A stretch of DNA of 54,405 nt, the filler included, from Streblomastix strix (Eukaryota): assembly GCA_008636045.1 (NCBI GenBank). It is 3 parts of 3 records of this genome, joined end to end, with 100 filler letters (N's around TTAATTAATTAA, not from the genome) between each part and the next. Parts side by side here need not be neighbours in the genome. Positions count along the whole stretch, not along the records: positions 36,351 to 54,405 come from SNRW01000645.1; 2 more parts are not named here. One strand, given 5' to 3'. A program made the position numbers and the translations under genes. Below are positions 1 to 53,500 of this stretch, one piece after another; position 1 is the first letter of the stretch; every line of letters begins with the position of its first letter. The notes under the pieces are model-generated. The model was given only the letters and a program-made list of their open reading frames with translations. It did no database searches and was not told where the DNA came from.

Positions 1-1307
1 TGAGAATTTTCTAATGATGGTTTATAATATTGATAGCTAAAGTCGTTTCTGATTCCTTTTTTGGAATAAGTTGATTAAGTTGTTTACCAGATATTTCCAA
101 AGTCTGCAGCTATCTTATATATTTTATTTTTATGTAATTCATGTACTTAAGCTAGTTTATCATCGAATTATTAAAGATGGGTAAATTTATTAAAGTAATA
201 TGTATGATAAGGTTCTTTATTTTAATTATTATTAGCCCAAGCAGATTTCTCAGATAATCCATTAAGATCAACATCATTCTATTCACGATATCGCTTTCTT
301 GTTTCAATTAGTGTTTCATTAAATTTCTTCTAATCATCAGATTAAAAGTACATAAATGCCTAGAGCTAATCTTCAACATTGGTGATAAATTCGTTAGTGA
401 ATTTGAGACCAGGTTCTTGTAATTATTTATTTTTATAAAATCCGAGTAATCATTCAGTTAATTTTGCTTATCTTATTGTGTATTCATCTTCAGTTAGTTT
501 ATTTTTATTTAAATCTGATAATCTATCTTCTCTAACTCGTTTCACTTACTTAAATGTATTGCTTAGATCTTTAACGAAGTGACTTATTATTTTTCTTTCT
601 TTATGTCGTTAATATTATCGTTAAATCTTCTTAGCTGCATGATCTAGTTATATCTAGTCTAAGTTATGTACAAGCATTGCTCTTGTATTGATTAATTGTT
701 TCTAACTAATCGGCTTCAAATCATTGTTTCTTTATTATTTTATTTCATTAATTTATTACACTTATTTATCCTTTAACTCTTATAGTTATCTCTTAACTTC
801 ATTGATTTGTTGACGATTTTTCATTGACTTCCTGACTAGATCGAAAGCCTTAATCTCATTCAGTTAGTCACTATCATTAGCTAATTGATTAGTCTATTCT
901 TATAACTTCGCCACTTACTATCTTAGTTCAATTTACATATTAATTCCATTTAATTTCTCTGCGGCTAGTTTCAATTCTTATTTAGCTTTTATTCTTTATT
1001 GCTATAATTAAATTAACTCTTATTCATCATCTTATTCATCAACCTATTCATTATTTTTTTCATTATTTGTGTCATTATTTCCGTCGTTATTTTCTGTAAC
1101 ATTAATTGCTGGCTTTGCTTGAACTTTGTTGTGAACAAACTCTCTTATCTTAGTAACAATACTCTTTGGTCCATTATATCCTTATGCTTTGATTGTTTAC
1201 ATCAATAATTATTCAAATACTGGTTTGGTTGATTTAGGATCATATTGAGCTTCAAGTTGATTGAGCATATCACGGACTTCGGAAATTAGAAAATATTTTC
1301 TAGCCAT
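1..1307 (-). pseudogene. Hypothetical coiled-coil protein of endogenous viral element (MARKYFLISEVRDMLNQLE...), degraded and truncated at window edge
   Basis: Long intronless frame when TAR=Gln; at least one in-frame TGA (~450); adjacent to the PolB cluster. Confidence 0.5.
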
Positions 1308-6796: not shown

Positions 6797-7749
6797 ATGA
6801 ATAAAATGATAAGTTTATTGGAGTCTTTTCCTCTTCCTTAGTTAGCGTATTATATGCACTTACAGCAATAAGAAACAATCCAATGTTTGCAATAGTGATG
6901 AACACTAATGAAGTTCCAACAATTATATTGAATAGCATTTCATTTATTATTAAAAATATGCCAAAATAAACTATAAAAATTAACGAATTACCAATAACGT
7001 TCAATGAAGATGGATATGATTAAATAGGTAAGGTAATGGCTTTGATTGATGCAGATAGATTAATGTATAAGAATATTATGGATTCTAATTGTATTGTACA
7101 GGATATATTACCAAAAATTAATACTAATGATGCAATTGAATACCTTAAGAATAAAAAGGTGCCATAGATCGATGAACTATACTAAGCACTATTCAAAAGA
7201 GAGACATTTAGACGTTGTAGTGTATATGTTAGTGATAAGAATAATACAAAAATAATCTCTGCAGCTAACATTAGAATCCAACATGAAAATATCGTTCCAA
7301 ATGTGCTTTAATAGTTAGTGAACTTCGCTTATGAATGTGATTAATCAAATAAGATTATGGTTATGTTTACATGCTATCTGATATACGAACGCAATCATCC
7401 CCATGAAGATAGAAATGGAAGAATGGGACCATTATTGTTTCAAGAAAATATATATAAATTCGCTGAATCATTTGTTCCTCTATCGACTGCATTAAGATAT
7501 AATAAGAAAATATAACATTTAATGAATGAAATATTCAAGAGCATCAGTTTTGGAGAAATAATGAAGAAACAATAGATCAAGAGTGGTGATGCAGCTATCT
7601 ACAGAATAGAGATACGGGAGATAGATTTGAATAAATTTTATGAGATTATTAATGACAATTAACGAACAAAGCAAAAATATTACACATTAGATTTAGAAGA
7701 TAATATCTATAAACTAATTATAAGATTATTGAATATGATTAGGGTGTGA
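6797..7749 (+). CDS. Fic/Doc-domain protein, degenerate motif; start likely frameshifted (first in-frame ATG 6883)
   Basis: YERNHPHEDRNGRMGPLLF at ~7385-7440 resembles Fic consensus HPFxDGNGRxxR; homologous to 44926-45660. Confidence 0.8.
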
Positions 7750-8805: not shown

Positions 8806-11629
8806 AAAGTTTGGACAAAAATAAATTCATTTCATTCTTCTTTACCTCCTATACTACCTTTTCAATGAATTCATTATCTTCAATTATTTTCATATATTTT
8901 TAGTAATTCACATTAGATGTTTCGATATCCTCTTCACTCATCATTTTATCATAATATCTCAATTAATCTTTATTTAATTTATATATTCTAGTTCTTAATC
9001 CATTAATTCTTGGTGTTTATTCTGTAAATTTATGAATCATCGCATTCTTAAAAGTTTTCAATTATCAATTCTACGGTTTGTATTAATTTACAAGAGATAT
9101 CGGAATACCTTATTTGAACCGTTCGTAATGTTCCATAATAACATCATCTATTGGAGATCGACTAACATTTATCAGTCATTTCTTTGCTTCAGTCATTGGA
9201 ATTAATGTTGGATTGAACTATGAAATATCTCTTTCAAGTAGGAATGTCACTAAATTTTCATAAATCTCTTAAATATAGCTCTAGCTTAATTCATTAAAAT
9301 ATTCAACATCTTCCTTATATTTTTCACTCACTTAATGAACAATCTTGCAAGCGCATACTAAATGACGTCTTTCATCAATGCCCAATTATACAAACATATC
9401 AGCGTTTGTTACATAGATTATATTCAATACATTCTCAGCTGTTCTTCTTAGCTAATTCTTTTCATTAATTCTTATAGTTAGATCAGAAATAATTGATTTC
9501 ATTACTGTTGCAACACCTTTCTTTGAATCATTATAATTCATTATTTCATTCTATACTGCAAACTTTTTATTTTCAAGTACTGAATTGAATTTTCCTGTGA
9601 ATTCATCTATGTTTGTTATATTAGAGCAACTATATCGACTTGTTAGTTCAGCAATCACATCAGTGAATCTATTTTTACCTATTCCTTATCTACCTTGTAA
9701 TACGATTGTTGTTCTAGACTTTTTTCCAGGATTTTGTATCAACCACGCCATCCAATTAAGAATATATTCATAAACTCGTTCATCACCCGCAGCAATAGTT
9801 TCTTTATTCAAATCAAGGTACATTTACAAGCATTCATAATCAATTGTATCTAATTTCTTATATTTATACCATTGGAATACTGTGAGAATCTTTGGATCTT
9901 CACTTATGAATTTACATCCTTTCTTAACAAACTTTTGAAGCATATATTTTAAAGATTTGTTTTACAGTTATTGGTTTTGAGTTATCTTTTTCATCAGTTT
10001 TCTTATTCTTGAAATTTTTATTAATTTTCTCTAATTATTTATAGACAGTTCCTTCTAATTTATGATATAAAACTTATGTATCGCAAATAGCATCATATCT
10101 TTTAATTGCATATATATCTTCAGTTTCACCTTCATAGTATACTAATAATCTTGTTAAATCCATAACAATTTATTCTTCATTTTCATATTCTCCATTAGCT
10201 GCTTTCTCTTACATGTCAAGTAAAGTGAAATCATCAGTTAATTCAATTTTATTTGGAATCAATGTCAAGTTAATTAATACTTATTTTTCCTTCTTTTTTG
10301 CTTCATAATTCTTTTTCAATAATGGTTTAATTGTCTATTCGTAGTAATCTTTATTATGGTATCTTAAGATTTTTGTAAGGATCCATGGATTTGGTTTGCG
10401 TTCATAATTAGATTAAGCTTATCCATAGTTCTTATCAGCGTTTACAGTTAATTTATTGAATTTACGTATGTTATCTAATCCTTTAGCTCTAATAGATTCA
10501 TTACTTATTTCATATTACCCACAGAATATGCTTAGAAGAGATACTTCCATATTGATTGGTTGTGGATAGTTATATATATCAAGATTCTTCAATCCATCAA
10601 CACACGTTTATGCAAGTTTATCATTCATTTATTCAATTGCACCGTCTTCATTGATTTATACTCCATATATTCTATCGTGTTACTATTATGCGTAATCCTT
10701 ATATGACATCTCAATATCTATATTCCATTTGTAAAATATCTCTCGCAAGCTCGCTAAACGTGATGCATTTCCCCAATCATTAACTGCTTCATATTTGAGT
10801 GTAACTCGTTAGTTATTTTTAGTTTCTCGAATAGCTGTGTTTGAAGCAACTACTCGATTCTGTAGTATCTCATTTGTCTCATATCCATTTTCAATTTTAT
10901 ATTAAATCATTTATGCAAATACATCAATATCAAAACTATCTGTTGTAGCTATTTTTACATTACGATTGGAAGGTAATCTATAATTGTTTCTATTTTAATA
11001 GATATTTAATCCTCTATGAGTAGTCTTAACTAAATCTACATTTAATGGAAGTGAATCAATTAGATTTTATCTTATTTTATCGATTTCTTCAATTGATTTA
11101 TCCTTATGAATATCTATATCAACAACACATAGATTATCTTCATCAACTAATGATAAATCAATTAATTTGCCTGTTATTTATTATTTTTTACTTTCCTATT
11201 AGCTTATTTTTGTATAGTTTACTGTATTAATCATAACATCTTTAACGCGTTCAATTATTGTTTTTGAATCTTATTCTTACATATATGATTTTGCTATCGG
11301 TTGTATCATTTCAAGAAATATATTATCATTTAATTTTTTTTCTAATCTATATGTTAATTTCTAATTTGAAATTCTTGTTTCAAGATCACTTCAGAATTAA
11401 TTAGATCATGAATGAATTCGTCATATTTTTCTTCAATAATATGCTTATTCGTAGGTTCATTTGTCTGTTCATTTGTCTGTTCATTAATCATTTGATCAAT
11501 CATCTCTTTTGCTTTCTCTTCTGCTTTCGATTTGCGAATATATTTACGTTTTGGTCCTTTCTCAAGTGTCTCACATTTCACATTTGTTTGTTGGTTTGAT
11601 TTGCCTTTTGAAAATTCTTCTGTTGCCAT
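8789..11629 (-). pseudogene. Prim-Pol (bifunctional primase-polymerase) + PriCT-like + D5/SF3-like helicase, ~945 codons, with internal TGA stops
   Basis: N-terminal VVDIDIH and VKTTHRGLNIY primase motifs (~11000-11130); Walker A IVLQGRQGIGKNRF (~9665-9710); FAVQNE Walker-B-like; TGA at ~9066 and ~9178. Confidence 0.85.
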
Positions 11630-15159: not shown

Positions 15160-16740
15160 ATATTCATTCATTTTGTAAAATATTCAGTTGAAATTTCTAT
15201 TTTCTCTTATTCCTCACGTAATTCATCTTTATCTAAATCATTCATCATATCATCATAAATTGAATAATTTTCTTCTAGTAATTTATATACCCTAGCTTAT
15301 TTTTTATCAATATATATTCTTTGCTCAGTACATTTTTGCAAGATCGAATGCTTGAAGCTTCGTTCATTGCAGTTATTTGGTTTCATTAAGCTTACCTCTG
15401 ATATTGGAATGCTATCTTCAAATTTCTAATAGTTTTGATAATAATATCATCAACTGGTGTTCGACTAACATTTAACAAATATTTTTTTGCATCAATCATA
15501 GGAATATTGGTTGGATCAAATTTTGAAATATCTCTGTTTAGGAAGAATGTTAATAAATTATCATAAAAATCTTTATCCATTCTTTTGCTCAGCTTATTGA
15601 AATATTCATGATCTCCTCTATGAACTGCTTTGCATTTTATCACTAAATAGCGTCCATCACTATTATCCAATAGGATTGAATAGTCATTGTTAGTTAATAT
15701 AATTGAATTGATTACATTCTCAGCTCTTCATTCTGGTTAATTATTCTCATTAATTCTTATAGTTCTATCTGTAATTATTGTCTTCATTGCTTGTGCAGTA
15801 CCTTTCTTGGACTCGTTATAATTCATCATTTCATTTAGAACTGCAAACATTATATTCTCAACAACTGAATTGAATGTTTCTGTGAATTTTTCGATTGTAG
15901 AAATGTTTGGTTGACAATATAGTGAGAACATTTCTGAAATAGCATCTATGAATCTATTTTTACCAATTCTCTGAAGTCCTTGAAGAATGATAGCTGTTCT
16001 AGGATTTTATCCAGCAATTTAAGCAATGAATGCAATCCAATTAAAAAAATATTCAAAAACCTCTTTGTTTCCACCTGCTATTGTTCCATATGTCAGATAA
16101 TTAATGAACATATCAATCTTTGATTCATCAACTTATTCTAATTTTTCATACTTAAATCCTTGAAAGACATTGAATACATTCGGATTATCTGAATTGAATC
16201 TAACTCCTTCAACAACATATTATCCACTATATTTTTCGAAAATATCTTATACTGTTATATGTTTTTTACCATCATCCCATAATCTAATTATGTGCATTTA
16301 TTCATATGCGTTAGTCTTTGTTTTTTAGCGTATTACATTAGTCTCTTATTAAGCATCATATTCTTTGATTATAAACACTAATCCAGATTCACCAGCATAG
16401 TATCTAATTACGTTAGTTAAATCAGTTGCAATATCTACTTCTTATTTATACTCTCCTCTTGTTACTTTCTCACTTATGTTTCCAAATATGAATGAATCAT
16501 TGATGTCAATTCCTTATTTTTCAATCATTTCCAGATTTATTTCATGTTTTGATTTATTTTTTTTTGTAATCTCTTTTTGAACAATGGTTTAAGAGTTGTT
16601 TCGTAGTATTCTTTGTTATGAAGTTTAATAATTTTCGTTAGTATCCATGCATTAGCTCTGCTGGAATATCTTCCTTTTCTATCGCTCCAATGTTCATTTG
16701 CCTTAGGTGTGAGTATATTATTTCTATAAATATTCAAAGA
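15160..16740 (-). pseudogene. Second D5/SF3-like primase-helicase, 5'-truncated (primase domain absent), frameshifted
   Basis: WILTKIIKLHNKEYYETTLKPL, Walker A ILQGLQRIGKNRF (~15950-15990), FAVLNEMMNYNESKK, DGRYLVIKCK; clear paralogue of 8789-11629. Confidence 0.85.
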
Positions 16741-18075: not shown

Positions 18076-18175
18076 NNNNNNNNNNNNNNNNNNNNNNNNN
18101 NNNNNNNNNNNNNNNNNNNTTAATTAATTAANNNNNNNNNNNNNNNNNNNNNNNNNNNNNNNNNNNNNNNNNNNN
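18076..18175. other. Artificial contig spacer
   Basis: 44 N + TTAATTAATTAA + 44 N. Confidence 0.99.
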
Positions 18176-26240: not shown

Positions 26241-26377
26241 TTTTTTGAATAATTATTCATTTATAAAAACTTTTTTTATGAAATTTTAATTTTAGTATTA
26301 AAAGGATAATTTTCTTTTAAATTTTATACTAAATAGGATGAGTGTAAATGAACTCATTGTTTATACTTAAAATAATA

Positions 26378-26745
26378 ATCATTATAAACTTTAATAAACT
26401 CTTGAAGAATTAATTAACAATTTGGTAAAAAGTCAAAAAACAAAGCCACTTATATTTTCTAGATAAATTTTTCTAATTTTAATTTTCAAAATATTGTTTA
26501 TTTATTCAAATCTCTACAAAGACAAACAAAATATTGATCCAAAATCTCGAACGGAATTCTCGAACTTGCACAGATTTTCCCTCCACATTCATAGATCTAA
26601 ATTATGTATTCTACATATTTAATTATCAAAATTTTATAATACTTAAATTAAACACCCTTTTTAACTATATTAATAGTTTCATAAACCTTGTATTTGACTT
26701 TGAACAAATATTTTTAACATTTAACTTTCTACAATAAATATTTTG
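26378..26745 (+). repeat. ~370 bp element, near-identical inverted copy at 33652-34021
   Basis: Long near-identical stretch including GATCCAAAATCTCGAACGGAATTCTCGAACTTGCACAGATTTTCC; both copies give the same spurious 67-aa ORF. Confidence 0.95.
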
Positions 26746-26774
26746 TTATTTATTTATAATATTTTTTATTAAAG

Positions 26775-33620: not shown

Positions 33621-33651
33621 TTATTCTATCAATATTTAAATAAAATTTAAT

Positions 33652-34021
33652 AAAATATTTATTGTAGAGAACTAGATATTAAAAATATTTGTTCAAAGTC
33701 AAATACAAGGTTTATGAAACTATTAATATAGTTAAAAAGGGTGTTTAATTTAAGTATTATAAAATTTTGATAATTAAATATGTAGAATACATAATTTGGA
33801 TCTATGAATGTGGACGGAAAATCTGTGCAAGTTCGAGAATTCCGTTCGAGATTTTGGATCAATATTTTGTTTGTCTTTGTAGAGATTTGAGTAAGATAAT
33901 ATTGTTTTGAAAATTTTACTTTTATTGATTTATTTAGAAAATACTAATTACTTTATTTTTTTGACTTTTCACCAAATTGTTAATTAATTCTTCAAGAGTT
34001 TATTAAAGTTTATAATGATTA
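33652..34021 (-). repeat. Inverted copy of the ~370 bp element, upstream of the RRM gene
   Basis: Reverse complement of 26378-26745. Confidence 0.95.
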
Positions 34022-36250: not shown

Positions 36251-36350
36251 NNNNNNNNNNNNNNNNNNNNNNNNNNNNNNNNNNNNNNNNNNNNTTAATT
36301 AATTAANNNNNNNNNNNNNNNNNNNNNNNNNNNNNNNNNNNNNNNNNNNN
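36251..36350. other. Artificial contig spacer
   Basis: 44 N + TTAATTAATTAA + 44 N. Confidence 0.99.
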
Positions 36351-36513: not shown

Positions 36514-37335
36514 TCAGTGGATTGATCTCTCGGAAATGGTCTATCTAATTTGATTCATTATCTCATCTACATCTTAATCATTAGGTATAGTGAAACCAAG
36601 ATTCATCATTATAATACCTCTTTTATTTAACATATCCTTAATGACATGGTCAATTGATACCGCTATTGGTAAATTATTTATATAAATAGTTGATCTTTAC
36701 TCTATTAAAGGATATTTATTGATACTATTTTTATGTAATCTATGGACCTTATAATACCTCCCATCAATGTCTTCGTTAATGAGTTCAACTGAGTATATAT
36801 AATCATATTACTTATCTTAAGGTACTAATCTAGGTTCCATTTGTTGTATTGTATTACTATAGTCAATGTTCTCACGTTAAAGCTGTTCAATTAATCTACT
36901 TGTATTAACCTCAAAGGTAATGTGTGTTTGTTAGCTATTTTCGTTAATTGAGTCCATTATATCTGTAACAATATCAAGATATTTAATATTTGTTTTCATA
37001 CAGATGATATTAACTAATCTTGGATTAATATATGTTCCTCTAACTTCATTTATATATTCATTGATTAATTGATACTCACTAAGTGTGGAGAGCTAGCTGG
37101 TTTTCAAGCCAGCCCACTTATCGTTAATAAATTGCTTATATTATTTGTATAATTGAGTTGTAGATATATTCTTTAATTACTTATTTGGTTATTCGAGGTC
37201 ATTAATCTTTTATACTAGTTTCGCTGCATTAATGTATCCATCTTAATCTCTTATCATTATCTCAAATCCATTATATGTTCCGATAGTGAAGGTTTCGTTA
37301 TTGGATGTAATTTTAGTTGCTGTTGGGTTAGTCAT
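36514..37335 (-). CDS. KilA-N domain protein (273 aa)
   Basis: GTYNGFEIMIRDQDGYINAAKLV ... VRGTYINPRL, hallmark KilA-N motifs; intact frame. Confidence 0.88.
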
Positions 37336-38359: not shown

Positions 38360-38569
38360 TCACTTAGGTCCATTAATGTATCGATCAACTCCACCAGCTA
38401 TCCGTTACCCTACTCCCATAGCTGCTCCTACTCCTGGATGAATCATACAAACTGGACCTGCTAATGTACCCAATACCTTATTCAATGTTGGGGCAACCCA
38501 ACCTGCAGCTTTAGTTATACCTCCTAATATTTTGCTACCGAAATTTTTCAATCCAGACCAAAAATCCAT
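38360..38569 (-). CDS. 69 aa Gly-rich amphipathic protein resembling the adenovirus protein VI membrane-lytic helix
   Basis: MDFWSGLKNFGSKILGGITKAAGWVAPTLNKVLGTLAGPVCMIHPGVGAAMGVGQRIAGGVDRYINGPK*; intact; divergent from the putative MCP. Confidence 0.75.
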
Positions 38570-38629
38570 TTAATATAATAAAAAACTAATCGATTAATAT
38601 GTCTAAGCTGTTTATTTTTTGTAATCTAA

Positions 38630-40595
38630 ATGTCATTTGCATCAAGCGATTATCTGAAACGATTAGCTCAAGCACAACATTCGGATTACATTAACTCATA
38701 CTCATAATTCTAGGAAGTAATGCAGACATAAACTATAGTAGCATAATCATTTAATTTCTCTAAGCAATAATTCTATGATTAACTAGTGACTTAACTCACG
38801 AATGATGGAGCACATTATACTAGAGCTCCACTCGGGGCAAGAGGTCTCTCTACCTGTTCATGTGTTTAAACTTGTTAGATCAGTTGGTAAATTTAGATAC
38901 CAGCGAATACATTAGCGATATAGGTTAATGGGATAAAGAGTAATGGTGCAGCAGGTTTAGCTGCTAATAGATAAATATCAAATTATAATGTTTTTGATAC
39001 TAATAATTGGATAACACCTTAATCAGTAACAATGGAATCAGGTGTTGAAAATAATTAATAGAGATATAATATTGATGAGGAACACATTAAATTTTGGTTA
39101 GGTTTCTCAACAGCTTGTGAGCCATTTAATTAGATTGCTATATGCAAAGATTTGTAGAAACTATGGGATACATCAATATATGCTAGAATGTAAGCAATAT
39201 TTGCATCAAACTCATTGACTAACGAATGTACCGCTAATTTTGTGACTGTTTCACCACCTGAAAGTATAGTATAAGGCAAACGTCATTGTGGGGTATTTAT
39301 TGATATACCTACTGCTAAGATTAGTGTTGCAGGAGCTTTTAAATTACCTAATACCCTATGATATAGTATTTAGTAGAGTAATGGATCTGAATTAGCTAAA
39401 CCCTATCTTCAACAGCTTTCCCGTATTGACTAGAATTTATGCTTAATTGCATATATAACTCTGGATGAAAGATTTCTTATAAGACCTGAAGGTAGTTTGG
39501 TTGAATAAATACAATCCAGTTGATAATTCATATCTAGCCTATACAATGATTACACCAGAGAAACCTGATATAATTTACTTAAAAAATAGAGCTTACAATG
39601 AATATGCTTCATATGCTATTCGACTAGTTAATATGGAAGGTAAACCTAATACAACTACTATACCTACAGCCACTATAAGTTAGATTAAATATGCTAAATT
39701 TAATAAGCTATATATAAATAACCTATGCTTTAATATAGAGAATGAAGCAGTAATTGTTGATATGATTCGTTAAACAAGATTAGTTAATTTTCCTACATAA
39801 ATTTTATGTACTTAATCATCAAATTACCCTGCTAGTAACATTGCTGATGGTGGTGGATTTATTTAATCAATAATGTCATTTGCTAACATCAAGTCGATTT
39901 TCTTCACATTTGCTATGCCATAATATCCTACATGGGTCTTCCCTGTTCTATTTAAAAATATTGATTTGATTATAGATTAATGACATGTTATTTCAAGTGC
40001 TTATCCTGCATTAACTTAAGATGTCTGTAGATAAATGTTCGATTGTTTCGTTGATTAAGATATAGTTAGTGCTTCATCTGATTTATATCATTCATTGGTG
40101 TTTGAAAACGAGTCTATTGATGATCATAGCTATCCATATGGAATTGAAGTTGCTGAAACAGTGGGTTAACTTAGGCCAGTATCTAATGTATTTTATGCAA
40201 CGACACTATATTAGGGATCTAAAGCAATTAAGACATACTATCCTAATAAGTTTATGCTTGCATGGAAATTGGCCAGTGATGATTCATTTATGAGAGGGTA
40301 TAACTCATCTAAGATAGGTGCAAGAACTAACGTACAAGTATAACTCGGTATGACGCATGTAAATGCTATATGCACGGATGAGCCAATTATACCCGCTGAT
40401 CTAGACTAAAACAACTTTAGTTACTTTACCTCAACTAGATGTTACCCCAATATTAAGAACGTTAAATTGACTCCATTAACCCACTAACTATGCGATGGAA
40501 TTGTTCGTATAATGTTTGATGATAACCCCGATCCACAAGTGCTATCATTAGAGGTCATTGGCGTGATAAGTAGAAGTGCAATTAGATCTGGATGA
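38630..40595 (+). pseudogene. Putative major capsid protein (double jelly-roll), frameshifted
   Basis: ~650 codons, beta-strand-like alternating hydrophobic segments (IKSIFLTFAMPQYP, IDLIID); largest non-fibre gene of the packaging module; no diagnostic motif, so the call is contextual. Confidence 0.55.
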
Positions 40596-41328: not shown

Positions 41329-43566
41329 TCAAGGAGGGACTGATCCCATCGTTAATGGATGAGCTCTCCAGAACACATTATTTTCATTGCTATAGAATTT
41401 ATTATTAGTGTCAACGCTATTCATACCCCATAAGATAGGATTGCCTGCTGAGTAATTAACTGAACTATTACTTGATCCACTTTATGCTCCTGTGCCAGCG
41501 ATAACAGATCCATTGAAAGATAGAGTATTTCCATCAGCTGAGATCATTAATCATCTATTAGCTGTAATTTATTCACCTGCTTTTACAATAACGAAACCCA
41601 ATGGATTTAGAAAGTCATTACCTGATGTTCCAATTAGCCATTAATTAGCAATAAATCCACTGGTTGAATTTGAATCACAACCAAATTATATATTACTCCA
41701 TTAGTTATTAATTGATCTGCTAATTCTTAATCCTTCAGTATAATCTCTATTATTTGTAGGATTAATCTATAGCTCATTATTGAATTATTTTATACCTGTA
41801 ATTGATTAATCAGTTCCAATATCAACTAATAAATTACCATTGAATTTAATTATTGAACTATCGCTGTTAATTGAAAGCCTAACACTATGGTCAGCTTATC
41901 GTAGAGATGATTGGTTAATTATCAAGGCATTATCATTCGTTTTACTTATATCCCATTAACCTGTTTATGTAGTATTTATAGCAGTAGTTGCACATCCTAA
42001 ACATAATGATGAGTATTCAGAGTTATAATCTTTAATTCTAATACCATTATTATATGTACCATAAGTTCGACCTGTTGGATTAACTTATAGCATTCTATTA
42101 ATTATTCCACCATTAGCTAAATCATAAGTAATTGGTATTTATGTAGCACTTGATACTGATGTAACTACATTCTATGTTAATATCTCTGTTATTCTATTAG
42201 TATAATAAGTGCTTTAATCCGATACCACTATCGTAATGTTATTAGTTGTTTCTATTCTAACATATGATGAATAAATAGCAGATGTACCTGATCCAGTATG
42301 AGTATGAAATAGTTAATATACACCACTTTCTATAACATAGTTAGCACTAATTTGAGTTGGAGCTGCAAATATACCATATATAGTATTGATTCAATTAACG
42401 GTATAATAAGGCACCAATCTAATGGTTTGAACAGCATTATACATTGAATATTTTTTAAATTCTATGAATGGACTACCAACACTAGCACCTGCAGGAAATA
42501 CACATAATCTAATCCATCCACCTGCACTACTGTTGTATGATCTTGATAACTTTGAATCTATTGTTGTTGTATCTCCATTAGCGCATAGCACTTCTGAAGC
42601 AAGTCCACCTGTTTTAATAAATTTAGTAGCAGTTACATTTCCATCATAAGTCAATTGCTATGAATGAACATGATCGTGTCGAGCATAAAAAGTAGATGAT
42701 CCATTAATCCCTACTCCATCAAATATAGGTATATTCGAAGCATTAGTCTCAACGTTAATGACATGTTAATGGTCAGATATAGTGTATGAATTTGCTGTAC
42801 AAATTGATCCATCTCCATCTTAAATCGGTACCTCTGATGATATATTGATAGCATGAGAATGATCTGATCTAGTATAATTAACTGAAGCACCGACTGAACC
42901 ATCAGCTGTTTCACTAATCGGTACACTAGTCGATATGTTTAATGGATGGATATGTTCTCCACGTGAATATTCAGCACTAGTTCCTGCATTTACTGTACCA
43001 TCGGATAATGGATTAGCATCACTTGCAGGAGTCATTTAGTCAGGGACAAGCTTATCAGTTTCAATCCATTAACTCCCATCATAATCCCATTCTAATAAAT
43101 CCTCTGCACTATACGCATAATCACCTATTGCAGGATTAGACAGTTATAGTATCTCATCGTTAGTTGTAAAGTAACCTCTGAAGTGAGTCTATCGTGCTAA
43201 TTCAGTGTTAATAACTTATACATCAGCCTATAGCTATCCTATGTCTTAACTGTATCCATTAATCTGTTACTATATATTTTATATCTATTACTCTAGTATG
43301 ATTGTTTTTTAGAGGAAATCGTTGTTTATTAATTGTATGTTGTTAACGATCAATAAGCCATCTTGCGTTCATTTCATCGCATAATCTGTGGGGTTATTCT
43401 TAGGACAATACAGTAGGTTATTTTAGTCGTCAATTGTTAATTAATAGTTATCATTATCCATCACTCCATTCGAACTGCTCTTCTTTGTATACTACATATA
43501 ATAACTAATATCTGAGTGTATTAATCGTTTGATTACTGACAATTGTTATTATGAAAGAGAAGTCAT
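41329..43566 (-). pseudogene. Fibre/tail-fibre-like protein (~745 codons) with His-containing repeats; at least two internal TGA
   Basis: Coiled coil, then repeats YSRGEHIHP / YTRSDHSHA / YTISDHQHV / YARHDHVHS, KFIKTGG..EVLCANGD and beta-rich GIRI repeats. Confidence 0.75.
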
Positions 43567-43580
43567 TTTAGTTAATTTAA

Positions 43581-43970
43581 ATGAGTATTATTTCATTAAT
43601 CATGTCAATATTCAATTATGTATTCTATGGAGCTAATTTTTTGTTATCTGTTATTAGTGTATCAATACCTGATCAAGCGTAAGAGCTAATCAATGTATTT
43701 AAAAAGCTATGGAGTTATCTTGATGTGATAGTGATACCGATTAATATTGTAATCTATATTGTTAAATTCTTCTATCATCGTAAAATGCAAATTAACAAGG
43801 ATCACCATTGGAGTTAATATACTATTGATGAGCTGTATTAGTTGATATAATTAGCTATAGACGCTAAGGATCTTAAATTAGCCTAGCATTATCGATACCT
43901 GATTACTTTAAAATTGATTAATTAAACCAATTAAAATGAGTCTATCAGAGATAAAGCAAATATAGTTTGA
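43581..43970 (+). CDS. Small predicted membrane protein
   Basis: MSIISLIMSIFNYVFYGANFLLSVISVSI...VIVIPINIVIYIVKFFY, two hydrophobic segments; 3' end overlaps the ATPase start. Confidence 0.5.
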
Positions 43971-44972
43971 TACTTATAATATGCTAGATGAATATAAAAC
44001 TCGTCCATTAACGTCTAAATCAATCTTCCTTATTAATGCAAACCATTATATAGTAGGAGCTGTTAGAAGTGGTAAAACAACATTAATGAGTAAATTAATC
44101 GTGTTGTATAAACATATAATTAACCCCTACATACTATACTTCTCAAATATGGGACCAGATGAAAGTATGTCGTTTAATATGAACGATAAAATATAGCAAT
44201 TAATAATATAACTTATGATACTGCGATGATGTTTCTGCCTTAGTTCGATGAGATTAAATACAAGGTTAAAGAGATATATACCTATTGGAAATTAAAGCAA
44301 ATTAATTTCAAATACAATAGTGATTACATTAAATAACTCAAGTAGAATATGATTAATGCAAATGAGTTAAAGAAGGATGAATCGTATCAATAGTTTACAT
44401 CTCGAATGAAGGAGTAATTTAAGACCTATTGTATTGAAACAATTAACGAATATAATTAACCCACGAAGCTAATGTAATGTACTATCCCACCGTTAATATA
44501 GAATGTAAGTTATGAGAAAACATTAAAAATAATAGACACAGAAGAGATTGTTGAAGATGGTGTATCGATAATCAAAACACTAAAATTACCTATACTATAG
44601 AATGCACGATTGTTATCTTCATTAATGATCTTTGATGATATTGGTTCAAATACAGATATATAAAGATATACTTCATAGCTATCTCGTACAATAATTCATC
44701 TCGTTAGTGATAATCATCATTCTAAAAATACCTTATTCTTTGTAGCTTAACGTCCTAGCTATATGTTCAAGACAGCTCGCATCTTATGTCATGTAATAGT
44801 TATAGGAACAGGGATATCCGATAATGATATCAAGTAAATATACAATGAGAATCATATTAACACCTTGTCTGAAGAAGAACTAATAATTCTATATAATATG
44901 TTTCATTAATAAGAGTTCATTATCATCAACAAGTATGAGAATAGGTTTGAGTTAATTAGATAAGACCATTGA
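43936..44972 (+). pseudogene. A32/FtsK-HerA-like genome packaging ATPase, one frameshift (~44210)
   Basis: Walker A IVGAVRSGKTT, Walker B LMIFDD, NHHSKNTLFFVAQ and downstream KTARIL motifs. Confidence 0.88.
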
Positions 44973-45660
44973 TTTTAGAAGTAATTTCATCATTCAAATC
45001 GAGATTATAATATTGATCACGAGTTCGTTGATTATTGTTAATTAGCTTAAGAAATTTAACTTTATCTTCTATCTATATCTCATAGCGACATATAACATCA
45101 TCATCTGTTTTTATCTGATGTTTTTTCATTATTACATCGTACATTAATTTATCGTCATCAGTATCATTACCCTTAATGTAATTGAATATATCGTTCATTA
45201 ATTTCTTCGCTTTAACGTTATACCTTAATGTAGTGGATAATGGTATGTTATATATCTCCAAGAATAATAGTCTCCCTATTCGACCATTACTATCTTCGTG
45301 TGGATGTACGCGTTAGTAGATTAGAAAGTACTTGAATTTAGTGACAGGATCATTGGTCTAATGAGCCTTGTTCACTAGCTCCTGTAGATAAAGTGGATCG
45401 ATTAATTCATGTCTAATTCCTACGTTATCTGCTGATATTATTTTTGAATTATTCTTACCACTAACGTAAACACTACATTAGCGATGTACGTGTTACATCT
45501 TAGGAAATATCAGTCTATATACTTCATCAATATTAGGGTATGTTTTATCAAATATGTATTAAATTGCTTCATTAACTGTTTCATTAGGTATGAAACCCTA
45601 TTCGATGAAATTTGAGTTCATTATACATTGTTTTAAGTAAGCTGCATCTATATTATTCAT
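44926..45660 (-). CDS. Fic/Doc-domain protein (244 aa), intact frame
   Basis: IYQRVHPHEDSNGRIGRLLFLE at ~45255-45320. Confidence 0.87.
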
Positions 45661-45804: not shown

Positions 45805-46851
45805 TCAATTTATGGTTGAAAAATTATGTAAGGCATATGAATCATACACCTAAACACAGAATAGATCGGGAAAATTTATCTAACACAGTGTATTGATTCT
45901 AACATGTCCATCCACATCAATGTAACAGTCTATCGGTATAGCACCATTCCAGCATATAGGATATCCCAATACCTTCTACGCAAACATAACAGCATTAAGA
46001 GGTATAGTAAATGGTGTACTAGTAAATTAAGGTTTAGCTTCATCCTTAAACACAGAGAACAATGTATAGGTTGATTATGTCTAAGTATTAGGATTGTTGT
46101 GTGTTATTTACAATGATATATAAGCCCTTCCATTATATGTAGTAAATGAACCCCAAGCTAATGATTCATACATACCATAAGCGATTGTTGATTTGATAGC
46201 GTTTTCAATTGGAGGAGTTGGTAGGGGTGATACTAACTAATTATTGAACTTGAGTTAAGTGCAATCGAAATCGATAACCAATCCCTTGTAATCATAAGCA
46301 TAATCCTGTTATTTTTGTACCATGAATTATGATAAAGTCGATCCCATCTTCCATACTCCATCGCTATCAGTTGGATCGTTATTACAACCCGTTAATACGA
46401 AGCTATCCCAGTTCGCTTTATTTTTCATTATCCTAAGCCCTTAATTACGAATATCATTATCAGGTTCAATTATCATCTACTCCATAGCATGAGGATAGTG
46501 TTTAGGTAAGAAATCACCCACATCAGTTATATCTCCATTAGCTAATAGTAATTAGTTATCAGTACCATTAGTCTTGATGAATTAATCGGCTTAGACTGAC
46601 TGTGTGAATTATTTATATCCTGTTACCATTTGATCAGTATCTAGTGTCATTAACTTAGATAAATTGACATTTGTTTTCATGTATTAGCTAAAGTAAGTAA
46701 TCAGTTTAATAATCTCGGAGTCAATGAAACTGGTTAACGATTTTTATAGCTTCTCTAATTACTTTACTTCCTCTTATTTTTACTATATCTCTTACAGCTA
46801 TTGTTATATATTTATTAACTCCTCATCAGTTGGTTCGATTAATAAATTCAT
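45805..46851 (-). CDS. Second, shorter fibre-like protein (348 aa)
   Basis: Coiled-coil N-terminus; TLDTDQMVTGYKQF and QFIKTNGTDNQLLLANGD share repeats with the long fibre; beta-rich C-terminal head. Confidence 0.7.
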
Positions 46852-46869
46852 TTTAACAAAAATAAACTG

Positions 46870-47516
46870 GTCAGAATTCATTTATATCAATCTCTGATGC
46901 AGGTTTATCTGATAGTCTAACGAAGTCCTTATTGACTCTATATAACTTCTCAACTGAGTTTCAAAGCACATTATCAATCACACTAATGCTTACGTTTTTA
47001 ATTAATACATCTATTACTCTAACAAGGTCTTTCTTCTTATATTTCTTAGTCATACATGAATGCGATTACATCAATGGTTCCTCTAATATGATTTTTATAT
47101 CATCCTCGTTTTCTTATATGATTAATGACCAGAATTTAATGAAGTTATCGCTATTCAATATGAAGTCATCCCCTCGCTTTCTTGATGTAGTTACTCTCCA
47201 TATGCAATCGATAACGAATTTAAGGACCTCTAGATTTGGATGTGCTAAGAATGTATTTTTAACCACTTACTCTGGTTCAACTTAAGCATTTTCTCGTTCT
47301 ACTTCTTAGTATTTATTTTTATTATAATGTCTCTTAGGTTTATCTTCTTTGATTAATTCAGCTTTAATTTCCTATGGAGCTGATAAGTTTCTCAAGGCTT
47401 AATCAATTGATTATAATCTAAGTTTATCTTCTTCTGTTAATTCTTTCTTCATGTCTTCGATTTGTTTCTTTGATTTACTCATACGGAGTTAATTCCTCTC
47501 GATACTTGAAATCATT
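46870..47516 (-). pseudogene. Viral hypothetical protein with internal TGA
   Basis: MISSIERNQLRMSKSKKQIEDM... open under TAR=Gln. Confidence 0.45.
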
Positions 47517-47546: not shown

Positions 47547-48083
47547 ATGGATAAATCACAAGCCTTAAGAAAATTAAAAGAAAACGGTACTACATTCGAA
47601 AGCTTCACTGGAGGCTATTTAATGTAAATAGGTAAGTAGATTAAAGTATTTGATGATGGTTAGAAGGCACCTAAAGTATTAACATAAGCATAATAAAATA
47701 AGTTGCTATAGATGCCTACAATTATAAAATAATAAGAAGAACGATTAATGTATTAAAATAATAAAGATGATGAAAGTGAAGAAGAAACTAAAGTATAATA
47801 AGCAGTAGTTAAAAAGAAGATTAAAGCAATATGGAAATAACCCTCTATTAAATATACTACTCCATAGATTGATCTTGAAGAGCTAATTAAATTGCGAACA
47901 GAAAATCGATTCATTAAGTAATAACATATCGAATCATAGAAACAAATTAGTAAATATAAGAATGAGCTTAAATCAATGAAATTGGTAAAAGAATAAGTAA
48001 TTAAAGAATAGCCTATTGAATAATAATGGCCAATTTAAGAGTAAGTTATCGAAAGATATATTAATGAGTTTGAGTTATATTGA
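47547..48083 (+). CDS. Viral hypothetical protein (MDKSQALRKLKENGTTFESF...)
   Basis: ATG..TGA frame followed by TTTATTTTT. Confidence 0.55.
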
Positions 48084-48114: not shown

Positions 48115-50545
48115 TTTCACATCATTGTAACAAGGAGGGGGAGTCCTTTGTAATCAAAATGTTTAATTATATCAAATAATCGATATGGTCAACGAGTAGG
48201 AGGTCCTTGAGGGAAGTCAATTACATGCGTTAAAAGGGTACCATTTAAAAATGATGATATATCTTTGTATATGGTATGAATTGATGCTTATTGTTATCTG
48301 CCTAGGATAAAACGGTGATTAGTCCTATGGTTCGTGAAGACCGTTTATTTTTAAAAATTATAGTTAATTTGGTTATTTATTCCGTAGATTTTGTGGATTC
48401 GTGGGAGCGGGTAGATTTGGGCTATTATCCATACGATTTTGAAAATGGTGCTAATTTCGCCAATAATATCTTCTAACCGAACCTATATGTAGACTTCAAT
48501 TACTTAATTCCACAACATAAGACACCTCACAAATCTTTTTCACTACACCCTTAACAACAATACTCACCAGTACCCATACTGAAAGAAATATTGCTATATT
48601 TAGACCAATTTCCCCTGAAGACCCACGAGGAAGCAAGGAAAAAGAACCTAAACGATAACAACCGAAACCACAACAATATGCAAGACTAATAGATGTAGTT
48701 GAAAGGTTCAAAGAAATAATGAAGCTAATAATTGAAGAGAAAAAGAAGAAACCCAAGGTTATGTTGCCCGGTTTATACAAAGAATATCAAAACAAAGACG
48801 ATCCTGTTATTTTCTACCCACCTAAGAAGTATCATCCATCCCCAATACACAGATCAAAAGACGTAGATCTCTCAGAAGATCAATGAAATTTATTTGATGA
48901 GGGACGTACGCGAGGGCGTAATCTCCATTTTATCTTTGACTAATCGACAACCTCGAAGCTTGAGCGAATCTACCAAAGGGATCATACATACAAGGGTTAC
49001 TAAACATCAGTGATGTAGTGGCTGGATTCTTTAACATACACCCTCAAATATACCAATCAAAACTTGAAGCAATAAGAGGCTTAATCATATTCGCCGCAAA
49101 ACAAATTGTGCAATCAGAGACATAAAGTAAAAACCAAAAACAGTTATCGAATAAACAAGAGATAATCGTAGCTGTTGGAACAAACGACAATGAAGACAAT
49201 GACTAATCTGAGCACGCAATCAAACCCAAGAACTTCACAAACGGAAACGATGGTCTCAGAAAGAATGATAGCGGGACGCAGTTACAGGCCACTGTCAACG
49301 GAGAAGCGAAACCCAAGATCAGTATCACATAAATATCTACCAACACTCCACCTCACAATGTATTCGGATCAGACAGACTCGTAGGAAACGGTTGAGGGAC
49401 GCAGGTACAGGCATAAACCAACAAAAATGGAGACTTAAATCATCAGGCAATAGATAAACAAGCAAATAAAACAATAGCGAGCAAGCTATTGTTAATAGAA
49501 CCAGAGAAAAATAAAATAACTAAATATCACGCAATGAAAGCCAAAATGAACAAGAAATTAAACTTCTAGACAATGGAAATACTTTACTAAAAGTGACTGG
49601 ATCACTTCGCACTACCCTTTCCGAACAAGAACTAGGAAATCAAAACATTTCATATTCTAGAAGCTAACCACCCTTAATCGCCATCCCTCCAGAATTAGAC
49701 TAAGTTAAAGGGAAAATTGTAGTACCTAAACAAAGGATGCAACCAAATAACGACCTTGATACTAGAAGCAATACAGGCTAACCAAAAACCGTAGCTGATA
49801 AATCCTTAGGGAATCCCGAGCCTAGAGCCAACATCGACATTTCTAAATATTTTATATTCTAGTAGGAGCAGAGAAAAAGGCAGATATAGCACCAGTTAGT
49901 GAAGACAAGTCTGCAAAACATTCCAAAGGCAACAATACCAGTGTAGGATCCAAGAAATAGAAACAAGGATTCAACTCCGAAAACCAGATAGAAATAGAGC
50001 CTGAATTCGAAACTGACTAGTCGGATTAGTTGGACTGAGTAAGAAGGAAAGGAGGAAAGAAGGATGGGCAGAGATCTTGTGAACCGTGAAATGAACAAAG
50101 AGAATAAAGGAATATTAGACACGATTACGGGAACAGATAGTTAGATACTTGGAATAATGGGATACAATTAAATTGATTGATTTCATCTAATAAGGATATA
50201 TTCTCGAATGATAAGATAACTAATGTATTAATAAGTTACAATGTTAGTTAAAATTAATGAAATTTAGGGGAACAAAAGAAGAAGCGAAAGAGTATAAGAT
50301 AAAGTTTGAAGAATAATTGAAAGAGAGTATTGTAGTACCGATCAGAAAGTAATGAATCAAATGGTATAACCCAATATTCATGTTAAAGAAAGCAAACGGG
50401 AAATGGAGAAAGATACTGGACGCGAAAGCATTGAATAAATAGATTGCAGACTTCCACTTCAAAATGCACGATTCGAACGAGGTGAAACAAATAATTAGAC
50501 TTGGAGATTCGGGCACTTCACTGGACCTCTCCTCCACATTTCCCT
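48115..50545 (+). mobile_element. 5' part of a DIRS/Ngaro-like retrotransposon (gag-like region and RT N-terminus), truncated
   Basis: Shift to higher GC and A-skew; RT segment follows. Confidence 0.75.
50125..50545 (+). pseudogene. Reverse transcriptase N-terminal fragment (DIRS-like)
   Basis: WYNPIFMLKKANGKWRKILDAKALNKQIADFHFKMHD...TSLDLSSTF; breaks before YxDD. Confidence 0.88.
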
Positions 50546-50549
50546 TCTA

Positions 50550-53500
50550 AAATCAACTTCATCACTAAAAGAACTTATTGAGCTTATGTTTTTATATCAT
50601 TTTTATTTGCGTTGCTCAAACCTAGACCATACTTATTTTTTGGTTCATTCAGATAACTGTAATATGATAATAGTTTAACTTTGTCTTTCAATGCATATAT
50701 CATTATTTGATTATTCCTTTCAGAACCAACTAATAGCAGTGTTAGAAGTAAATGCAACGATGGAACTAGATTATCTTCTTAGCTCAAGATCTTCAATTCA
50801 TAATCATTATCAAGAATCATATCGTGATTATCTATAAATAAATATGATTAATATAAATCAAAGATATAAATCATAATCAATTATAGATATATAATGTATG
50901 TTTATTAATAATATTATATATAAATATGATAACCATTAATATACCTGGGCAATCAGCCAACAGCTCAATATACTACTAACTGTTATTATAAATACTCTTA
51001 AGCTGATTAATTATCTCAGGTCCTGAATTTTAAGGAAGAGGATATGCTTTGTACAAAGAAGCGATAATTTAAGCAATTGCTTCTCTTATCTGTTATTTAG
51101 TATCACCTTTTCCTACTTCTATAAAATATTTGATAAGTTCATCAATAGTTCCATCATAAGCCAGAGGTTACCTCAATGGATGCTATTCTCCACCTTGAAG
51201 ATATTTCATTCCAATATTAAACAGTCCATCAAGTATTCTACGAGCAATGAAAACAACATCTTCATCAGCAGACGTGAGCATCTTCAGCACTATTGGCACT
51301 ATTCCTTTTTGAATTAATTTTCTCTTCTGATCAAATGAAAGTTGTTAGATCAAATATAAGATTAGAGATAGATTGTATGATTTGATGATAGGAAGAGGGT
51401 TATTATTGTGTAGTTTGAGAATGTTAAGAATGAATTCAGTTTCAAACACAATCATATTATTTCTTGACTGATTGTTATATATCAGTGATTTGATTATTTC
51501 TATTACGATGAGCATCAATCTTTCTTCCCCAAATACTTCAATTTCAGCCATTTCAATGTCATTTTCATAATTATCTTATTATTATCCAAATACATCTTCC
51601 TTATCTTCATTATCATTATCAATATCATTTACTCCACAATCTCTTTCTATATCAATTTCTCTATTTTAATCACTCTCATACTCTTATTCATCTGCATTGG
51701 TTCTCCCGAAGTATAAAATACGCATTAATTCTTTCAAGTTCTTTCTAACCTTAACACTCTCTTTATCAGATTCGCCTTCTTCATTCAATCTTTTTAATTG
51801 ATACATCTCATCTTCATATGAAATTATTGAATAAACTTCTGCTTTATCAATATTCTCATTGCTGGATCTTATAATTTCTTCCTAGCCAACTTCATACGTA
51901 ACATGCATTTATTCTTATTCATTTTCTTTAATTTATTCTATTACTTGATCTTTCAAATTATTATATTTACCCACATTTTTCTTCATCAATTAATCAAACA
52001 CTTTAAATAATTCATCAATCAATCTTGCTCTTATTAATTAATTTATATATTTGTTAACCTTATTAATAACTGATCTTCTTATTCTCATCAGTTTATCCAC
52101 TGTTTCTGGATAAATCAAAAAAGACTCGAGAATTTGTGTTTCATTCTTATAATCATTCCGAACCACTAACTTCTTCAGTGTTTTTGTCCTAATTTCTTAT
52201 TTCATGAGATATTGAGAGTATTCACTGCTAATGATGTAGATGTTACTGAGAAATTTGATCAATGAGTTGATCACGATTGACTCTACTTCATTTTTTGTCG
52301 TTTTCTCTATATCAATATAATATGTGGAAATAATATTAATAAATCACTAACAAAAATAAATTTAATTTATTATATATATCAATTAATTAAAAAAAAAGTA
52401 AACAAAAATAGTATACCTGAGAATATCAATAGCATTATCAAGGTATCCTTCTTCAATAATTGCATCATAATTTTCTGAATGGAATATTAATGTTATTAAT
52501 ATCAATGTAAAAAATAATATAATTAATATTATAAAAAATATCATTTTTCATTCTTTTATTAAGTATTAATATTTATTATTCATCCCTTTGTTTATAGAAA
52601 TAAATGAAAGAGCTCCAAATGATCCTTCTTACTGCATTTCATCTTATGAATTTAGCGTATTGAATCCATTGATTACTTAATCATGAAGTTATGAAGGGAG
52701 TTGAGATCCTTCAATATAGAGTGTATCAAGGAATTTGCATGTCAGTCTTTTATTCTAACTGTCTATATTTTAATTTGTAAACATTTCAGTGATTATTGTT
52801 TAAATTATCTCACGTTTATGAAGATCTGTAAAATAAGGATGTTATTGTTTGAGAATTTCTTATAAATTAGATTATTACTCAGATTATTCTAATTATTTTC
52901 ATCCATTTTTACGATGTATATGAAAGTTAGGAGAATGAACAATTGAATGTTCTTATTATTGTTGTGGAGCTTTGGGGTAAGTACCTGAAGTATACCTGAT
53001 TCGTATATCCTTTGTATTTATTCAAATGTTTCTTTCTGACATATTTAGAATAAATGCAATATTCTCGCTGTTGATAATTGAAATGTAGGAGTTCACTATA
53101 TTTGGCCAATAAGTTCATCTAGTAGTCCTGATTATATAACATTATCTATATCCTTCTCCCCATGTATTAACCCTTCAGGTTTTTGATCAATTTTGCTAAT
53201 AATTTTCTTTGCGAAGTTCTCCTATTCATCAGAAATTTTTGATTAAGCGCCACTCACTATTGTTCTAGTTGACATCAAGAATTTTCATAATTTATTCATG
53301 ATTTATATTGATGATTATTATGTATCTTTAAAGAAGAAATTTCATCATTAATTTATGTAAATTAGTTAAAAATGTCTCGTTGATTATATTACTTCTATTC
53401 AGAATAAATTTCTCTGACTAAAATTGCGAGTACTTCTTAATTCTGCATAGTGTATATTCCTAACTTCATAATATAAAAAATAAAGCAATTAATATAAATA

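Follow-up and report, generated by a model that had tools for sequence, protein, structure and literature searches.

A Fic gene of predicted class II type in a likely Polinton-like element of Streblomastix strix

The window analyzed here is a stretch of 54,405 nucleotides made up of three unrelated contigs of approximately 18 kb each, separated by N44-linker-N44 spacers at positions 18076-18175 and 36251-36350. Its reading frames are open solely if TAA and TAG are translated as glutamine (genetic code 6). A Fic-domain gene, designated P0001, lies on contig 3 (36351-54405) at 44926-45660 on the minus strand; it encodes 244 amino acids under code 6, with eight TAA/TAG codons read as Gln, and has a GC content of 0.29, similar to that of its viral neighbors. 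Translation of the locus with table 11 gave no ORF, and this reading was rejected. P0001 converges on an A32/FtsK-type packaging ATPase gene on the plus strand (43936-44972), and the tail-to-tail overlap reported in the first-pass annotation was confirmed at 47 nt (44926-44972). Compared with an unbroken relative (P0101, 345 aa), the window copy of the ATPase gene carries an indel near 44187 that shifts its frame and a changed Walker A motif. Two ATPase relatives, P0108 and P0115, passed the Pfam cut-off for Pox_A32.

The A32/FtsK packaging ATPase is a criterion for Maverick-Polinton and Polinton-like viruses, and the contig 3 element that encodes it is likely a decaying Polinton-like virus copy integrated in Streblomastix strix, a termite-gut oxymonad. 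All eight close relatives of P0001 and 29 of 30 relatives of the ATPase gene are labelled S. strix, and related DNA was present in four termite-gut sequencing runs from two studies; no RNA run was among those listed, which has no bearing on expression. Endogenous Maverick-Polinton-like viruses that use code 6 are described in S. strix, with 820 capsid genes detected, in the available text of PMC10120064. An open KilA-N gene (36514-37335, minus strand; E 6.8e-12) marks the left end of the element. It is followed by a putative major capsid gene (38633-40595, plus strand) that is labelled from size and position, is interrupted by a TGA stop (39981-39983) and, near 39360, by a change of frame, gave no Pfam match and was identified as a double jelly-roll protein by none of the tools used; Metamonada capsids were confirmed by modelling only, according to the accessible part of 10.64898/2026.06.19.733378. 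A gene that we label fiber-like (41329-43599, minus strand) contains three internal TGA stops, two of which fall at positions that its relatives P0009 and P0125 read through. Directly upstream of P0001 is an open ORF of 388 aa (45805-46971, minus strand); the same order is found in other copies, and the proteins P0131 and P0004 show similarity to the products of the two genes together. Two further ORFs of the element, 46961-47515 and 47547-48083, are also open. On contig 3 we found neither an integrase or polymerase gene nor a terminal repeat, and self-BLAST showed no repeat inside it; protein-primed PolB motifs were found on contig 1 only. The element probably extends beyond the left end of contig 3.

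Several other features of the window were recorded. A short ORF adjoining the capsid-like gene (38360-38632, minus strand) has an amphipathic, Trp/Phe/Lys-rich N-terminal stretch and no Pfam match; this start is reminiscent of adenovirus protein VI, whose N-terminus is membrane-lytic. To the right of the element (48300-52300) lie a reverse-transcriptase-like fragment (50380-50667), recognized by eye and lacking a Pfam match, and an armadillo-repeat-like, host-type gene (50877-52205) with a weak Pfam match. Contig 1 contains two primase/helicase-like genes with DUF5906 matches (9135-11309 and 15438-16661, minus strand) that share 66% DNA identity, and on contig 2 a pair of 392-bp inverted repeats (26376-26763 and 33631-34021, 91% identical) flanks SLC12-like and RRM genes. 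Contigs from two runs of one sample diverge left of 45770, so some copies carry other sequence in place of the Fic gene. Public S. strix gene models (P0104, P0111, P0116, P0122, P0004, P0131 and P0009) merge adjacent viral genes, in some cases across strands, and falsely predicted introns are the probable cause. In four of these models (P0104, P0111, P0116 and P0122) the ATPase is fused with sequence antisense to the upstream ORF; they were not accepted as evidence of Fic-less copies because the joins resemble predicted introns.

The assignment of P0001 to the Fic/Doc (Fido) family was examined with profiles and structure prediction. P0001 itself scored 16.4 bits against PF02661, under the 24-bit cut-off, but seven of its eight close relatives (46-83% identity) scored 27.0-32.3 bits; the eighth is a fusion that lacks the motif. 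A search of 1.84 billion representative sequences gave 53 matches, 35 of which were aligned with the query and three close S. strix relatives (39 rows, 21-80% identity), and 37 of the 39 aligned members matched PF02661 at E<=0.01. The profile built from this family matched 28 PDB sequences, Fic proteins without exception (best E 2.8e-9). The AlphaFold model of P0001 had a pLDDT of 89.3 and displayed the helical Fic fold with its flap hairpin. Fic, Doc or AvrB proteins filled the top 23 rows of a VIA-align search, ahead of a first unrelated row at Z 4.1; the best match was Coxiella Fic2 (8cil_B) at Z 12.1 (rmsd 3.2 Å over 171 residues), a value near 12 that helical folds can also reach according to the tool's own warning. 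Foldseek agreed, with weaker E-values (best match Fic 4rgl, E 5.7e-4). The model places a beta-hairpin at residues 65-80 (45421-45468, minus strand), with strands 65-70 and 74-80, and this would correspond to the flap, described as the target-docking element of Fic proteins in the consulted portion of PMC3667792; it is thus the predicted target dock. P0001 is almost certainly a Fic fold with class II layout, as far as a model can tell, and the first-pass proposal of a Fic-fold gene in a Polinton-like element is borne out by the AlphaFold prediction, VIA-align, Foldseek, the PDB profile matches and the Pox_A32 relatives.

The active-site loop, HPHEDSNGRIGR (H119-R130; 45271-45306, minus strand), is bordered by helices 105-118 and 125-133; a catalytic His within an HP...NGR motif placed in this way is expected of a Fic domain. 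H119, R127 and R60 are invariant in the alignment (39/39), D123 is present in 38/39 rows and R130 in 37/39; P0001 retains D123, the acidic Mg2+ ligand, together with R127 and R130, as canonical AMPylases do. Against the strict motif HxFx(D/E)GNGRxxR it departs twice, with His for Phe and SNG for GNG. The first-pass annotation had drawn attention to a variant motif, HPHEDxNGR, and had suggested that the Phe-to-His change might alter the chemistry. The variant loop is there, but its His is a trait of the family: position 121 is His in 28/39 rows and Phe in 4/39, with S, L, Q and A also occurring, and in a larger comparison His121 was found in 33/48 family rows versus 0/34 control Fics. The motif Phe belongs to the hydrophobic core in the account of Goepfert et al. 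(PMC3667792, available text), and the AMPylase-type consensus given for the main Fic clades by Khater and Mohanty (PMC4454073, available text), Hxxx[DE]GNGRxxR, does not require it. A change of chemistry from Phe to His is unlikely, because the Phe is structural, the consensus is tolerant and the position varies within the family.

The 'x' of that variant motif masked a more telling position. Residue 124 (codon 45289-45291, minus strand) is Gly in 37/39 family rows, in 34/34 control Fics and in P0134, the closest relative of P0001 (88% identical), which also retains Phe59; Ser124 is private to P0001. P0001 was not filed as a canonical AMPylase because SNG replaces the GNG anion nest. The substitution need not be lethal, since AnkX is active with Ala at the equivalent position (PMC3667792, in the portion available), and by this analogy Ser124 may lower activity without abolishing it.

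A further feature, overlooked in the first-pass annotation, is located in the N-terminal helix (residues 6-20). This helix contains the motif S16-N-F-I-E20 (45601-45615, minus strand), so that P0001 carries the (S/T)xxxE motif in a helix before the Fic core that characterizes class II Fics. The Ser and the Glu are each present in 38/39 rows, (S/T)xxxE was found in 44/47 covered family rows, and the family motif aligns with SxxIEG in 28/33 covered control Fics. Class II structures (CbFic2, SoFic, FICD and CdFic) align from model residues 1-7, whereas class I and III structures align from residue 21 only. The residue after Glu20 is Gln in P0001 and G or N, the usual class II residues, in 11/39 rows. 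The aligned ranges 7..244 (model) and 221..429 (FICD) would, if ungapped, put Glu20 on FICD residue 234, which we take to be the inhibitory glutamate. In class II Fics the second motif Arg is engaged by the Glu in preference to the ATP gamma-phosphate, which blocks AMP transfer (PMC3667792, text as available), and Veyron et al. (PMC6408439, text as available) put this Glu forward as the mark of Fics that both AMPylate and deAMPylate. The SxxxE helix is therefore predicted, from sequence and model together, to mark the auto-inhibited AMPylase/deAMPylase type. With an inhibitory Glu in place, weak wild-type auto-AMPylation is predicted even for a working copy.

We also examined whether P0001 has been maintained. 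It had been described as intact while its neighbors carry stops or frameshifts. The frame of 244 codons is indeed open, next to a frameshifted ATPase gene and capsid-like and fiber-like genes with TGA stops, but the element has four more ORFs without interruption, and P0001 departs at 7/83 columns that are otherwise invariant among S. strix relatives, in addition to carrying Ser124. The same count was 0-1 in each of P0002, P0003, P0005, P0007 and P0008, 6/82 in P0006, 5/81 in the second window copy and 13/70 in P0004, where it is due to mispredicted ends; several of the private changes of P0001 are conservative. The chance of a 732-nt frame staying open with TGA as the sole stop is 0.44-0.86 at 10-2% neutral change and about 0.53-0.66 at an assumed 6-9 lesions per ~10.5 kb, so an open frame in P0001 is expected by chance. 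P0001 differs from the dominant copy in the sequencing runs at 86 sites, 40 of which were listed and 37 used, three being left out as not shown by the X4 contig; the Ser124 site is not among the 40. Silent changes accounted for 13.5 of the 37 usable differences, compared with 6/18 in the frameshifted ATPase and 5.5/16 in the upstream ORF, and by this measure P0001 looks no more constrained than the broken ATPase. The pN/pS ratio over these 37 of 86 differences was 0.43-0.65 (p 0.009-0.10 depending on kappa); as it is below 1, part of the divergence of P0001 arose under selection. These data fit a period of selection followed by decay, although some recent constraint is conceivable. The notion of a specially preserved gene was not upheld; P0001 is probably decaying and not maintained, and is likely a weakened relic.

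Contig 1 carries a second Fic copy, of another subfamily, at 6958-7749 on the plus strand. This copy is 47% identical to P0001 (tblastn) and lies directly downstream of a broken protein-primed PolB-type gene (motifs at 5231, 5777 and 6077). Its frame is open, yet its motif, HPHEDRNGRMGP, is wrecked by changes at two motif residues, so that a frame can evidently stay open around a damaged motif. Comparison of the two window copies gave a dN of 0.41 and a dS of 1.72, a ratio of approximately 0.24 at a dS near saturation. This ratio, well away from 1, points to long-term purifying selection on the Fic family in S. strix and fits an enzyme useful to the virus; the dN/dS comparison proposed at the outset supports the family in this way, but not P0001, whose silent share is like that of the frameshifted ATPase gene. 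In several copies of one subfamily the Fic gene has the ATPase gene on one side and the ORF at 45805-46971 on the other, while the one placed copy of the other subfamily follows the PolB-type gene. Because placement differs between subfamilies, a position in the packaging module, to which the first-pass annotation had attached meaning, is no constant of the family.

To define the range of the family, 30 relatives were looked up: P0029 is from Hexamita inflata, P0011 is from S. strix, and the others are 'hypothetical' or metagenomic proteins. A family-type motif pattern identified eight loci on metagenome contigs, of which L034 holds a gene edge only and L035 and L037 repeat L031 and L033, as well as two overlapping loci on a single genome contig (L045). 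In IMG/VR neither the family motif pattern nor the ATPase gave a match; the family profile retrieved 30 IMG/VR loci with generic HPF/HPY Fics, which were used as controls only. The family Fic adjoins a DUF4108 gene on L031 and L035, DUF4108 being a domain that we take to be linked to Trichomonas Mavericks. On L036 it is beside an integrase-like ORF (L036:2354-3898) that was labelled by eye and has no domain or sequence match, and on L038 it lies among orphan genes. On L033 it is near KilA-N, BspA repeats and a capsid-like protein of 655 aa (L033:7090-9057, minus strand), also labelled by eye, which is 58% identical to its counterpart on L045. The L045 contig (G001:C37:1-19956, 19,956 bp) encodes two tandem family Fic genes, the 802-aa capsid-like protein and approximately eight DUF285/BspA-type repeat genes; it was binned with a bacterial genome, yet looks like a fragment of a eukaryotic DNA virus. 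The capsid-like protein of L033 and L045 had no match in Pfam, NCBIfam, PDB or IMG/VR and a predicted model with a pLDDT of 26, and the L033 protein possibly comes from an unclassified virus group. The metagenome contigs that carry the relatives are likely viral.

A quick tree placed 47 of 48 family rows in one long-stemmed group (SH-aLRT 92), with small phage Fics nearest and P0056 outside. The rows had been picked by likeness to the query, which makes the grouping partly circular, and L001 and P0133 were left out for lack of the motif pattern. The phylogeny thus sets the family apart from the control Fics, but the branches that link it to phage Fics are not strong (SH-aLRT 86-90). The family apparently represents a class II-type Fic subfamily, likely viral, that has not been described before.

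AMPylation is used by bacterial effectors, toxin-antitoxin pairs and animal FICD. We favor, with some confidence, a reading in which a decaying Polinton-like copy carries a Fic gene whose intact family members are self-inhibited enzymes that add AMP to, or remove it from, a host protein, P0001 being a weakened relic. By analogy with known Fics, the family probably handles AMP. Known Fic chemistry suggests that His119 would deprotonate a Ser, Thr or Tyr of a target docked on the flap, that Asp123 would hold Mg2+, and that the GNGR nest and Arg130 would bind the ATP phosphates. Glu20 would compete for Arg130 and keep AMP transfer off by default, and the same site could be able to remove AMP. The target is the least certain step: it may be a soluble host protein of the cytosol or nucleus, with chaperones, chromatin proteins and translation factors as candidates in line with other Fics that bear the glutamate, and its modification, equally conjectural, might be tuned to favor virus replication. 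Chaperones, translation factors and histones are reported targets of FIC-1 and CbFic2 (PMC4854385, PMC10628234). We lean slightly towards a host rather than a viral target.

An unlikely, though the best surviving, alternative is that reversible AMPylation by the family is directed at a protein of the virus itself, which could be the packaging ATPase, the polymerase or part of the capsid, or at a larger virus infecting the same cell. The Fic gene is head-on to the ATPase in one subfamily, a linkage repeated in another copy, and beside PolB in the other, relatives are located beside capsid-like genes on other virus-like contigs, and an auto-inhibited design suits a timing switch. Position varies, however, among subfamilies and contexts, a helper virus was not found for S. 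strix, and the family spans elements that differ in gene content (DUF4108; integrase-like; capsid-like plus LRR arrays), which makes one common viral substrate unlikely.

The first-pass annotation had instead regarded P0001 as a host-modifying or anti-competitor effector, possibly with chemistry altered by His for Phe; in the form weighed here, P0001 would be selectively kept, and His for Phe, or Ser for Gly, would give new chemistry. This is quite improbable. Its open frame, its retention of H119, D123, N125, R127, R130 and E20, its pN/pS below 1 and the enrichment of His121 in the family over the controls all speak for it, and chemistry can change when the motif deviates, as in AnkX and Doc (PMC3667792 and PMC4454073, in the available text of each). 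Against this, the Phe is structural and its position variable within the family, Ser124 was seen once, the open frame is expected by chance, and the silent share equals that of the broken ATPase.

Still less probable is a family of catalytically minor scaffolds that bind nucleotides or proteins. Low Pfam scores would agree with such a role, as would the degraded motifs of the family members P0011, P0019, P0037 and P0055, but at an overall identity of approximately 25% the family has conserved its catalytic loop as well as the inhibitory Glu. The idea that P0001 is a bacterial Fic newly acquired from protist symbionts, or a misassembly, with no viral role is largely refuted and hardly credible: Fic genes are mainly bacterial and frequently mobile (PMC4454073, available text) and Fics of phages and bacteria are the closest outgroups, but P0001 has eight in-frame TAA/TAG codons and a GC content like that of its viral neighbors, purifying selection acts on two subfamilies that are approximately 50% identical, other copies have the same gene order, and the long-stemmed clade is separate from the controls.

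The self-inhibited host-directed enzyme that we prefer can be extended, as a speculation that is less likely than not, to an undescribed clade of self-inhibited Fics derived from small tailed-phage Fics, common to Polinton-like and larger DNA viruses of anaerobic protists, and switching a conserved host protein by reversible AMPylation. If true, no conserved AMPylase/deAMPylase family would have been known before from viruses of eukaryotes, in which Fic has so far been a matter of scattered annotations. With its catalytic loop and inhibitory Glu, the family offers a small, soluble candidate for virus-encoded reversible AMPylation and can serve to trace the little-studied DNA viruses of anaerobic protists. 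P0001 itself is of little weight here, and the relatives that retain the Gly are more informative.

Among known systems, the Maverick-Polinton and Polinton-like virus elements of the Metamonada group in S. strix (PMC10120064, available text) share code 6, the A32 ATPase and many related copies with the contig 3 element; Fic or Fido is mentioned neither in the main text nor in the supplements of that paper, of which file 2 was covered in its first part. The literature searched, including PMC4642659, 10.64898/2026.06.19.733378, 10.64898/2026.10.13.758929 and PMC12606086 in their available parts, with thin coverage of subscription papers and some supplements, contained no Fic in Polintons or Polinton-like viruses. 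The statement that Fic is not a core Polinton gene stands for the papers searched. A Fic gene was noted in the mirusvirus element CE1 of Aurantiochytrium (10.1101/2023.06.15.545109, available text), which belongs to a different virus group from the Polinton-like element and was outside our tree. The 'FIC protein-like' of Oryctes rhinoceros nudivirus and WSSV wsv406 matched by fold (Foldseek probability 0.99 and 0.95, E 0.019 and 0.08, respectively); they come from other virus groups, are 16-18% identical, and were compared by fold, outside the tree.

The small Fics of tailed phages are closer. With P0002 as the query, they were the top clusters of the ESM-Atlas (score 0.95), with lengths of 160-174 aa and 76-91% viral members; they are nearest to the family in the tree and have a similar SNxIE motif; they differ in retaining HPF, in using table 11 and in sharing only ~25-35% identity with the family. 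The fold is common to the class II Fics SoFic (Shewanella), CdFic (Clostridioides), CbFic2 (Coxiella) and human FICD/HYPE (Z 10.5-12.1), which share with the family the N-terminal SxxxE helix, the HPxxDGNGRxxR loop and the flap hairpin. In contrast to these enzymes, to which identity is 10-18%, the family usually has His for the motif Phe, often has a residue other than Gly or Asn after the inhibitory Glu, and carries a tail, LF(L/I)E(N), after the loop, in which the E is present in 45/48 family rows versus 1/34 control Fics. P0001 differs further in having Ser for the first Gly of the loop, and the family as a whole is distinguished from class II Fics as a single small domain from a virus-like protist element.
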